Virus record (IMG/VR): IMGVR_UViG_2681813261_000026
Strand: one strand, 5' to 3'
DNA length: 26,781 nt
DNA from: a virus
Taxonomy: Duplodnaviria; Heunggongvirae; Uroviricota; Caudoviricetes
Shown: positions 6,001-9,000 of the stretch, one piece after another
How positions within the stretch are numbered: position 1 is the stretch's first letter
How the letters are laid out: the number at the start of each line of letters is the position of its first letter
Position numbers: made by a program

Positions 6001-9000
6001 GGTACTGGCGACCGTATCCCATGCGAGGAAATCCGGCCAGATGACCATCAGCTCACGCTGGCTGAAATTCTGACGGTAGGCTTTCACCTCGGAAACGGTC
6101 TTACAGCCCCATGCGCTGATATACCCGAAAGCGCGCAGCTTCTGACAGACTGATGCCAGTGCAACAGCCACCTCTTTGGTGTCCAGTCCCGGCACGCCGA
6201 GAATACGCGGTTTAACACCGGTTACCGACTCCGCCGCCAGCAGGGCTTTCAGTCCGGTGTACTGACCGTTTTCGTCGGTGGTGCCGATGATATTGGAAAC
6301 GGTCTGCGCGAGTTTCGTTTCCTCGTCGTCGCCGGTGCCGTCTTCCACACGCACGACAACGGTGACCGGTTTTGACTGGTCGGCGATGGCCTGCAACGAT
6401 GCCGCCAGCGTGCCTTTTTTACCGGCCTTTGCAATTGCGCTCTGCACATTGGTAATCAGCACCGGTTTATTGAGGGGGAAGGTTTCCGCATCCGCATCGC
6501 TGGCCGTGCAGACCATGCCGACAATGGCAGTGGATACGGTGGAAATGACGCGGGTGCCGTCGTTAATCTCCAGCACCTGCACGCCGTGATGATAGTCACT
6601 CATCCGTTTAACTCCGTGGTTAATGGGTGCAACTATTTTCTGTTGGGCAGTGCATGAGACGCTATTTGACCTGGCTGGTCAGTGGATGAAACAACAGATA
6701 AAGAAAATGCGGGCAATTCGCCCGCATGTCCTGATTTGTACACACTCATTTTCCGACTGACAGTTTACATAGCCCAAACGCTATCAAATCTGACAGCCTG
6801 CTATGAGCGAAAAGCGTTAAATCTCACGATATCTGCTACCGGGAAAAATTTCGATTATCTTCGATGGGAACTTTGATAATGTAGTAAATGCCATTTTCAG
6901 CGATCACTTTTCAAGCGTGTGTAAATGATTAATGTTAAAAAATTGACTTCACTGAAATAAGGTTGCTAGTATTTTTGGAGCAACCATTAATGTTTTTTAT
7001 TTAAGGAATGTAAATGACATACGCACTGATTGATAATTCAACTCTAACTGCAGTCCAAAGAATCGAGGGGAAAGTAAAAACAAGATCGAAGGACTCAGTA
7101 GATACAGACATAATAGCATTTGAGAACTATATACAGTCTATTTTGTTCTATGATCACGTTATCGCGGTTGATGATTATATTCCAGAGTACCGTGGGAGTA
7201 GGATTTCAAGTTTCAGAGAGATATTATTTCTTGATAAAGCACAATATGGGTTGGATGAAATTGAAAGTGAAGCAAAAAAAATATCTGATGCATTGAAACC
7301 TAAAATTCGTGGTGGAACATTTGTTAATGACGATTTTAAAAAACTAATTGAACTTCTTCAGACACATATCATATGTACATGGGACATTAGTTCAAGTGTT
7401 TATCATCTAACACTGAAGAACTTATCTGATGGAGGTAAGGAGTTTGAAAAATATGGTAACATTGCTGCTGCCATTTTTTCAGAACTGCGTGATGCTGCTG
7501 AGTCTGGTAATAGAACAAATGGCGATGTTGAACTTCTCGATCGATTTGGCAACCCTATTCGCAAGGGGTACAAAGTTCCCGGAGCAAAATGGGGGGATGG
7601 CACATCTGCTGGTGAAGCATCAGATGCAATCAAAGCATTCGTGGCTTCGCTTGTATGGCTGGCTAATCGGGCAGTATTTTATTCTCTCACAGCTAAGTAC
7701 CTTCAAGCAGATACTTTTTTATATCCATTACGTCAGGCGTATCAACAGACATATTTAAGCCAAAACTGTCAGTATGGTTTTGACTATGCTAAACATATTG
7801 TAGAAAACTTTTCCACTTCGTTAAGTCATGATCTCATTGATATTCATTCTGGTGGTAAAGCTGTAGCAACAGCAACTTCGCTTCCTTTATTTTCGGCATG
7901 GCTCGCAAAAGAAACTGGTGATCCAAGTTGTATTGTTGAAGCTGCTTATAACATAAGGGACAACAACGAATTTGTAAGGGCCCGTGAGAAAATGCGAGAA
8001 ATAAAGCGCTTGTTTGATGAAAATGAATTGCCTCAAGCTAATAAGTCAGTAAGAGCATTGCTTACTGAAGTATCGAAAGAATCAGATTATATTCGAACTA
8101 AGTATGGGCTCAAGACTAGACAAGGTGTACCTGTAACTAAGCTTGTACATGTATACAATACTGTTGCGGCTATTAATTCCCTTCCGAAACTACCGACCTT
8201 TAATTTTAAAGTTAAAGTTCCTGATTTCTTATATGATCTTAAAAAACCCAAGGGGTTTCGTGCTCTCTATCGAAATTTGACTAATGATCTTTCTACTGTG
8301 TGGTCGTTAGGAGAAGCTCGAGATATTCTTGGAAGTAAAGTTGTGATAGATAATCATGCAAGAATTTACAGTCCGAAGCATGAAGAACCGCGTTTCAAAA
8401 ACTCTCATTCCCCATATAAGAGCCCGATGTAGCTTAAGAAAAAGACACGCCCACCTTGTGCGTCTACTTCTGGCACAGAGCGGACTCTCAGATTAGGCTT
8501 TACTCTGTGCCATAGATATGTAAGCTCACACCAGAGCTCATACAACTTATTGCGGCATTTCCGGCCATTCAGGATTTGCAGGATCCACACGACTGACCAG
8601 AACACTGTAGCGTTCCCATGCCTCCAGTCGACTGCGCTCCTCATCTGTTGCCATATTCAGCCTGACAGCGCGCTCCAGCGGCAAAATCACGGATTCAGCA
8701 TCTGCAAGAAGTCTGGCTTTCCGATTTTCTGCCTGCTGCTGCAATTCCTCTGCCGTATAAATTCGTTTAATCACTGTACAGTCCTTAAACATCCAGTTCC
8801 CTGAAATGTCCGCCCGTCGGTTAGCAGTAATATCCGGCACTTCAACAACACTTAATCCATCCGGTCTGATAGCTGTCACATCCTTTTCCACATAGCGGAT
8901 AATATTATCTTTGTCGTACGCTATTTTTATCGTGTCATCAGCAAAATACTTTTGTTCTTCGTACCAGTTCTTACCATCTTCTGAAAAAAACCAGACAACA

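Follow-up and report, generated by a model that had tools for sequence, protein, structure and literature searches.

The stretch of DNA analysed here, hereafter the window, comprises 26,781 nucleotides of a virus of the Caudoviricetes (IMG/VR virus record IMGVR_UViG_2681813261_000026). This report concerns the interval 6604-8546, which lies between the tail sheath gene FI and the tail-fibre assembly gene G and contains a single long credible open reading frame (ORF), 7014-8432, on the plus strand. Up to about 22.7 kb the window is otherwise a P2-type late region read from the minus strand, with the same layout as in RefSeq for Escherichia coli 89-3156, and a 771-amino acid tail fibre (H) ORF comes next beyond G. 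Our results indicate that the interval is almost certainly the site between G and FI at which P2-type phages carry variable cargo, exchanged through homologous recombination in the tail genes on either side, and that the cargo found here is probably a defence protein directed against phages or other mobile genetic elements. The slot, its cargo and its flanks are made up as follows.

5413-6603, minus strand: FI tail sheath gene, the left flank (396 amino acids; Pfam matches Phage_sheath_1, Phage_sheath_1C and Gp18_domIII_N; tail sheath in the 89-3156 annotation)
6604-6814, no strand assigned: conserved P2 backbone with the FI leader, the late-promoter region and about 70 bp more, near-identical in P2-like phages with different cargo
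6697-6727, minus strand: intrinsic terminator from a terminator scan (9-bp stem plus T-run, stem at 6707-6727), for minus-strand transcripts from G or the cargo
6727-6744, minus strand: TGT-N12-ACA dyad, one of five matches in the window and a candidate for the site at which Ogr/delta would activate the FI late promoter
6815-7013, plus strand: cargo-specific upstream region, AT-rich (G+C content, GC, about 0.34), absent from other P2-like phages and co-conserved with the gene
7014-8432, plus strand: cargo ORF, antisense to the late genes (472 amino acids, WP_000220361.1, PHROG 13435; soluble, pI 8.6, of an uncharacterised family)
8464-8546, no strand assigned: P2 backbone on the downstream side of G, conserved in the alignment, in which 8472-8511 forms a strong hairpin ( fold z-score -4.1 on the plus strand)
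8547-9074, minus strand: G tail-fibre assembly gene, the right flank (175 amino acids; Pfam match Caudo_TAP)

A sequence-only reading of the window had described 6604-8546 as a compositionally distinct island bounded by the start of FI and the stop of G, and both statements were borne out, the borders by the ORFs and Pfam matches listed above and the composition by direct calculation. The GC of the interval was 0.387, compared with 0.554 for the remaining window; 1,943-bp windows had a mean GC of 0.541 (range 0.387-0.602) with the minimum at start 6601, and the sliding profile dropped from 0.54-0.60 to 0.35-0.42 over 6500-8500. The GC at third codon positions (GC3) was 0.27 in the cargo ORF and 0.70 in FI. 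The island's separation from the GC-richer late genes was confirmed by this GC and GC3 contrast, with the qualification that its right compositional edge was not sharp, a GC of 0.41-0.47 persisting through G and the 3' half of H to about 9750. The 410-bp upstream non-coding stretch proposed in the same reading does lack a credible ORF, but half of it corresponds to the FI late-promoter and terminator backbone and only about 200 bp belong to the cargo.

Comparison with related prophages showed where the backbone ends and the cargo begins. Megablast of the island against 5,426 complete E. coli genomes gave matches in 1,017 of them, and a further 67 phage records were also matched, mostly at the edges only (about 15% of the query); the whole island was present in just seven of the E. 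coli genomes, at 99.6-100% identity. Three aligned P2-like prophages had other cargo at the same place (a 300-amino acid hypothetical protein, a DUF4145 protein and a 'lysogenic conversion protein'), and the alignment with them placed the break points of the common backbone at about 6814 and about 8464, so that approximately 290 bp of the island are phage backbone, in one segment from 6604 to about 6814 and another from about 8464 to 8546. The interval has the G-FI position, the edges common to relatives with other cargo and the deviating composition that characterise such a slot.

Within the left edge, the closing pair of the terminator shows a compensatory change, being T-A in the window and G-C in other P2-like phages. 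The TGT-N12-ACA pattern was no rarer than chance in the window; its copy at 6727-6744 lies in backbone that is conserved throughout, some 130 nt upstream from where FI starts, and from what is known of P2 late promoters it is a candidate for the activator site expected at the FI promoter. The following 70 bp or so (6745-6814) were conserved in all P2-like phages compared and contain CTGACAG at 6757-6763 and again at 6790-6796; this segment may serve to anchor recombination on the left side of the slot.

The G-FI position corresponds to the 'moron position 2', Z/fun locus or second defence hotspot of P2 (PMC3573123, PMC9519451, 10.1101/2024.10.15.618418), the slot itself having been defined in PMC3573123. 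A 2026 survey of 1,511 P2 genomes located 16% of the P2 defence systems in the tail-gene hotspot and described rapid swapping of hotspot cargo (PMC13586616), and the iLund4u preprint reported the Z/fun hotspot to be of mixed purpose, with receptor-binding-protein swaps, defence-like genes and invertases (10.1101/2024.10.15.618418). A cargo that benefits the lysogen and is expressed autonomously is the standard and best-supported reading of a slot of this kind. The slot is thus textbook P2 biology, and the novelty of this locus lies in its cargo.

Nucleotide comparison with the loci encoding relatives of the cargo protein delimited the module that it belongs to. By blastn, the Pantoea copy matched 6783-8528 at 86% and the Serratia copy, found in an integrative and conjugative element (ICE) between TraC and transposases, matched 6803-8449 at 83%; more distant copies had only the coding sequence in common. 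The true cargo module consequently extends from about 6803/6815 to 8449/8463 (about 1.65 kb) and consists of some 200 bp of upstream DNA, one ORF without any partner gene, and a hairpin. Because the Pantoea and Serratia matches span them, the upstream region of about 200-210 bp and the short downstream hairpin move with the gene. None of FI, G and H was found near any locus of the family outside E. coli. The Pantoea copy (positions 5769-7515 of its locus) still has P2-slot edge sequence on both sides, about 30 bp on the left and about 65 bp, including the conserved hairpin, on the right. These remnants point to transfer out of, or into, a P2 slot, and the copy looks like a cryptic remnant of P2-slot origin.

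A recent exchange of this cargo could be recognised by aligning the prophage of the window with the intact prophage of 89-3156, which gave 22.7 kb of alignment at 97.55% identity with 557 differences and one tract that stood out.

6080-9086, no strand assigned: tract identical to the 89-3156 prophage (3,007 bp, 0 differences where about 74 were expected)

Elsewhere in the alignment the identity per kb was 94.5-98.6%, the prophage DNA flanking the tract differing by 2-5%. The tract runs from within FI to shortly beyond G, stopping in the 3' end of H, a pattern to be expected of homologous recombination in the tail genes on either side and in agreement with the rapid swapping reported for P2 hotspots (PMC13586616). 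We read the tract as the mark of a recent recombinational import of FI'-cargo-G, which makes this locus a clean example of P2 cargo swapping. With respect to the genes on its right, segment 9001-10000 of H was the part least similar to 89-3156 (94.5%), and G was only 74-76% identical to the G genes of other P2-like phages. The low GC of G and H together with the divergence of both fits a receptor-binding module that constitutes a second exchangeable unit beside the cargo slot.

The family to which the cargo protein belongs was examined by several searches. A word-indexed search recovered 282 relatives, all annotated as 'hypothetical' and nearly all of exactly 472 amino acids, with 50-90% identity across Escherichia, Pantoea, Serratia, Pectobacterium, Acinetobacter, Halomonas, Vibrio, Psychrobacter, Desulfotalea, Citrifermentans and others. 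Only 324 members were obtained from 1.84 billion representatives in an exhaustive profile search; the 150 listed, fragments aside, had 430-485 amino acids and one architecture without fusions. The length was practically fixed at 472 as far as members of about 50% identity and was 455-485 in more distant ones. When one genome for each of 185,579 species was scanned with a pattern, 45 loci were detected, in a range that included Nitrospira, Cyanobium, Verrucomicrobia, Chloroflexi, Spirochaetes, Clostridia, Bacteroidota and Armatimonadota, and four plasmids were also found to carry the family, which is very rare and yet present in about 10 phyla. The only match in PHROGs was the unannotated phrog_13435, a Pfam scan of 65 members returned scattered noise only, and neither phmmer nor the family profile found anything better than E = 0.1 among all Protein Data Bank (PDB) sequences. 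No paper mentioning the accession or the locus tags was found, nor were these found in the DefensePredictor and Vassallo supplements. The protein has no signal or transmembrane segment, and a membrane or surface-exclusion protein was rejected as a candidate (maximum 19-residue hydropathy of 1.28, no transmembrane segment).

The GC of the gene was 0.37-0.41 in every host, and the ratio of nonsynonymous to synonymous substitution rates (dN/dS) was 0.06 in the comparison with Pectobacterium and 0.13 in those with Pantoea and Serratia, showing that the gene is under strong purifying selection, a constraint that extends over the family from E. coli to Clostridia and Cyanobacteria. What is new at this locus is a cargo family that is rare, spread across phyla, without recognisable domains and strongly constrained as a single-gene module.

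The copy in the window belongs to a prophage that is defective, having been truncated by an insertion sequence (IS) element with the cargo gene left intact. Similarity to the 89-3156 prophage ends at 22729 inside the portal gene Q, whose frame ends at 22904-22906; IS21-type genes for IstB (22829-23827, minus strand) and an IstA-like protein with rve and Mu-transposase_C domains (23601-25268, minus strand) are located beyond Q, and a VgrG/GPD-type gene (25351-26754, minus strand) comes after them. Because of the truncation in Q, the window lacks the integrase and replication genes as well as the first P2 hotspot; in this case the cargo outlives the phage. The sister prophage of 89-3156 carries an 'ATP-dependent nuclease' (OLD-type by annotation) at 27782-29254 of its locus in hotspot 1 and the 472-amino acid gene in hotspot 2, and two cargo slots are thus filled at once in one P2-like prophage.

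A defective prophage and an unannotated gene are also what would be expected if earlier recombination had left nothing but AT-rich junk or a pseudogene in decay. This explanation is effectively refuted by an intact frame of 472 codons that keeps its length and an identity of 50-90% across distant genera at the dN/dS values given above (0.06-0.13), by the presence of invariant residues among the 324 family representatives, and by the 100% identity of the cargo in the intact prophage.

The expression signals identified on either side of the ORF, which is oriented against the late genes, are as follows.

6943-6972, plus strand: candidate sigma-70 promoter TTGACT-18-TAGTAT with a TG extended -10 (9 of 12 positions)
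7003-7008, plus strand: ribosome-binding site AAGGAA, 6 nt before the ATG (from the sequence)
8443-8465, no strand assigned: cargo-specific hairpin and candidate terminator (fold of 8433-8546 on both strands; kept in Pantoea)

The sequence-only reading had pictured a cargo placed among Ogr-dependent late genes and equipped with its own signals. The antisense ORF, the documented slot and about 210 bp of co-travelling upstream DNA agree with that picture and with horizontal acquisition of the cargo, but the specific -35/-10 pair did not find support, as detailed below. At the position of the ribosome-binding site the relatives have AAGGAG, GAGGGG or GAGGAA, and both Pantoea and Serratia have promoter-like matches within the same AT-rich 60 bp. 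A housekeeping-type promoter at 6943-6972 is plausible but lacks statistical support. Autonomous expression of the cargo from the repressed prophage seems likely, because the upstream region shows about the same degree of conservation as the gene and accompanies it into unrelated surroundings, and because the gene is antisense to the only other promoters nearby. On the minus strand the hairpin at 8443-8465 is followed by a T-run from 8442 down to 8435; it could stop late H-G transcription running antisense into the cargo and may also end the cargo transcript. No non-coding RNA was matched in Rfam by the non-coding parts of the interval.

The genomic neighbourhoods of the relatives were then inspected. 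The gene stands alone everywhere, with no neighbour conserved across contexts. The Serratia copy is ICE cargo; the Pantoea copy is near a relaxase and an OLD-like ATPase-TOPRIM protein; the Pectobacterium copy adjoins a HEPN-Toprim protein, toxin-antitoxin (TA) genes and a CTD1-MComp1-SMC cluster; the Desulfotalea copy adjoins MksBEF; the Citrifermentans copy is near a TrwC fragment, and the Acinetobacter copy is a solitary chromosomal insert among housekeeping genes. The Vibrio vulnificus copy is an integron gene cassette, flanked by attC-like repeats within an array and with TA genes adjacent: repeats at 7839-7969 and 9426-9510 of its locus bracket the gene (8001-9419), and the array continues with a spacing of about 470 bp. 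Three ORFs on each side were surveyed in 39 further loci. In the divergent set of these (mostly Pseudomonas, about 35% identity) the neighbourhoods were rich in Hachiman, present at three loci, and in type I restriction, SMC/LmuB-like ATPases, DUF4365, PIN_8 and a TOTE primase; a type IV restriction enzyme and a PDC-S06 of full length were among the genes directly adjacent. In three Pseudomonas genomes (about 5300-11400 of their loci) a member with 36% identity is located immediately downstream of a complete Hachiman pair, HamA and HamB, in two of them in the same orientation; this adjacency probably reflects just a shared island. Taken as a whole, the family recurs beside defence genes and in defence-carrying mobile elements.

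It is this genomic context that argues for a defence role of the cargo, and we consider that the module is self-contained and, with somewhat better than even confidence, that it serves to protect the lysogen against other phages or mobile elements as a stand-alone, single-protein system. Several observations nevertheless weigh against this conclusion. The cargo protein had no match in Pfam or NCBIfam, and none of the 5,027 models of PADLOC v2.0 matched it at E <= 1. The neighbour survey was qualitative and made without a matched background, and the closer relatives were accompanied by integron-type cassettes and integrases, with few defence matches. As for expression, the promoter-like site and the ribosome-binding site of the sequence-only reading are both present, but the former is not above expectation, a consensus scan of 6400-8800 having found four promoter-like sites compared with 5.8 +/- 2.5 in shuffled sequences, and its hexamers are not conserved, the -35 element TTGACT being kept only in part, as TTGATT and TTGGTT in Pantoea and Serratia, and the -10 element not being kept. 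Finally, the slot is of mixed purpose and has also held a non-defence fitness gene of the same layout, neaT.

The last point introduces the main rival explanation, that the cargo is a lysogenic-conversion or host-fitness gene acting on host physiology, stress tolerance or virulence. The neaT gene was located in the same G-FI slot as a single, AT-rich, rare ORF opposite to the tail genes and had a virulence/fitness phenotype (PMC3573123), the hotspot is, as mentioned, of mixed purpose, machine-learning screens rate only about 15-32% of uncharacterised P2 proteins as antiviral, and close relatives of the cargo occur among integron cassettes of metabolic type (GNATs, glyoxalases). We nevertheless regard a fitness gene as rather unlikely. 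The cargo protein is soluble, has no signal or transmembrane segment and matches no enzyme family; many relatives are found beside Hachiman, restriction, SMC/OLD-type and HEPN systems or in the defence stores of ICEs and integrons, and the presence of the family in free-living bacteria of many phyla makes a virulence role in host animals unlikely.

The nature of the carriers (prophages, ICEs, integron arrays and megaplasmids), the TA genes that adjoin the gene in Pectobacterium and Vibrio, its intactness in this defective prophage and the possible nuclease-like acidic site described below could also be accounted for by a selfish stabilisation or toxin module, in which addiction, exclusion or a toxic effector favours retention of the element. 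We find this improbable, given that the mobile module has no conserved partner or antitoxin, as a type II toxin-antitoxin pair would, that the Acinetobacter copy is solitary and chromosomal among housekeeping genes, and that single-gene addiction without an antidote has no obvious mechanism.

Even less credit can be given to the idea that the gene serves the P2-like phage itself as a counter-defence, for instance as an inhibitor of host immunity. Accessory hotspots of phages do also hold anti-defence genes, and Anti_RM or Anti_CRISPR genes were reported in 28 of 1,511 P2 genomes (PMC13586616), which makes such genes rare in P2. However, tblastn did not find the cargo family in any of 50,697 phage records, the gene is antisense to the late genes and insulated from them, copies are present in integrons, ICEs and chromosomal defence islands without a phage, and 472 amino acids is large for an inhibitor.

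Returning to a defence protein, the sequence conservation and the predicted structure of the cargo gave a weak indication of how it might act. AlphaFold2, run with a 65-sequence alignment, gave a model with a predicted local distance difference test score (pLDDT) of 80.7 and a predicted template modelling (TM) score (pTM) of 0.85, for which Foldseek found no structural match in the PDB (best E of 0.04, TM about 0.1). The most conserved part of the deep alignment was residues 1-140, which contain an acidic cluster formed by D7 (98%), D30 (92% D/E), D32 (100%), E37 (100% D/E), D47 (94%), D53 (92%) and D54 (95%), conserved together with R16, G19, Y55, R63, W123 and S128. As many as 91% of the members have an acidic residue at 105-107 and 74% have D124, and P238, R240, P291 and R324 are invariant further on. 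Residues 1-140 possibly form a metal-binding catalytic site in a Rossmann-like, perhaps PIN-like, domain.

The resemblance to a PIN fold is weak, and assignment to the PIN nucleases was rejected: hhalign against a VapC alignment, the seed of which was 98% identical to Shigella VapC, gave a probability of 0.2%, and no Pfam PIN match was obtained for the cargo protein or for the 65 members. In comparison with PIN/VapC ribonucleases, the cargo protein has additional invariant residues (D32, D47, D53/D54) and a weak fourth acidic position, its domain is fused to about 330 more residues without a structural match, and no antitoxin accompanies it. A metal-dependent phosphodiesterase or nuclease effector of PIN-like topology is our leading guess for the mechanism, albeit a weak and doubtful one.

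A possible sequence of events can be outlined on this basis. The cargo would be expressed from the repressed prophage through a promoter in the AT-rich upstream region, with the hairpin shielding it from transcription of the late genes; the large, helical C-terminal part would hold the N-terminal effector inactive until infection is sensed, and the activated N-terminal alpha/beta domain (1-140) would degrade nucleic acid and lead to abortive infection. The combined explanation (the slot, a self-contained module within it and a defence protein with a possible nuclease domain) has, in our judgement, only slightly more than an even chance of being right. A wider proposal, which we put forward tentatively and hold at somewhat below even chances, is that the relatives constitute a new-fold family of stand-alone immune proteins, distributed over about 10 phyla by prophage hotspots, ICEs and integron cassettes, in which an infection-triggered N-terminal nuclease or phosphodiesterase of a new type is coupled to a phage sensor, likewise new in kind, formed by the C-terminal two-thirds of the protein.

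Among known loci, the closest counterpart is the Z/fun locus of P2 itself, which has the same G-FI position, the same backbone edges and a low-GC, non-essential, variable cargo. The fun gene, which excludes phage T5, and three experimentally selected or validated defence systems have been reported there. The cargo of the window differs from the alternative cargos of the slot that were examined (the DUF4145 protein, the 'lysogenic conversion protein' and hypothetical proteins) in being unrelated to them and in being oriented opposite to the late genes, with which those cargos are co-directional. The neaT gene from the P2-like prophage of CFT073 is alike in its slot, in being a single ORF opposite to the tail genes, in its AT-rich, unameliorated composition, in its rarity in E. 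coli and in its discordant phyletic spread (PMC3573123); in contrast, it encodes a membrane acyltransferase (PF01757) with a virulence/fitness phenotype, whereas the protein described here is soluble, matches no family and has defence-type neighbours elsewhere. With respect to the single-gene defence systems (the PD systems of Vassallo, the DUF4238 protein of Rousset and the integron cassettes of V. cholerae), there is no sequence relationship to the cargo, those systems have their own promoter where the cargo has a candidate one, and the cargo family is met with much less often (45 loci in 185,579 species by the pattern scan). The likeness resides in the form of the element, for these systems too are stand-alone mobile genes of patchy distribution and low GC, often without recognisable domains, and the cargo of this P2 slot represents a compact single-gene candidate for a new defence system.

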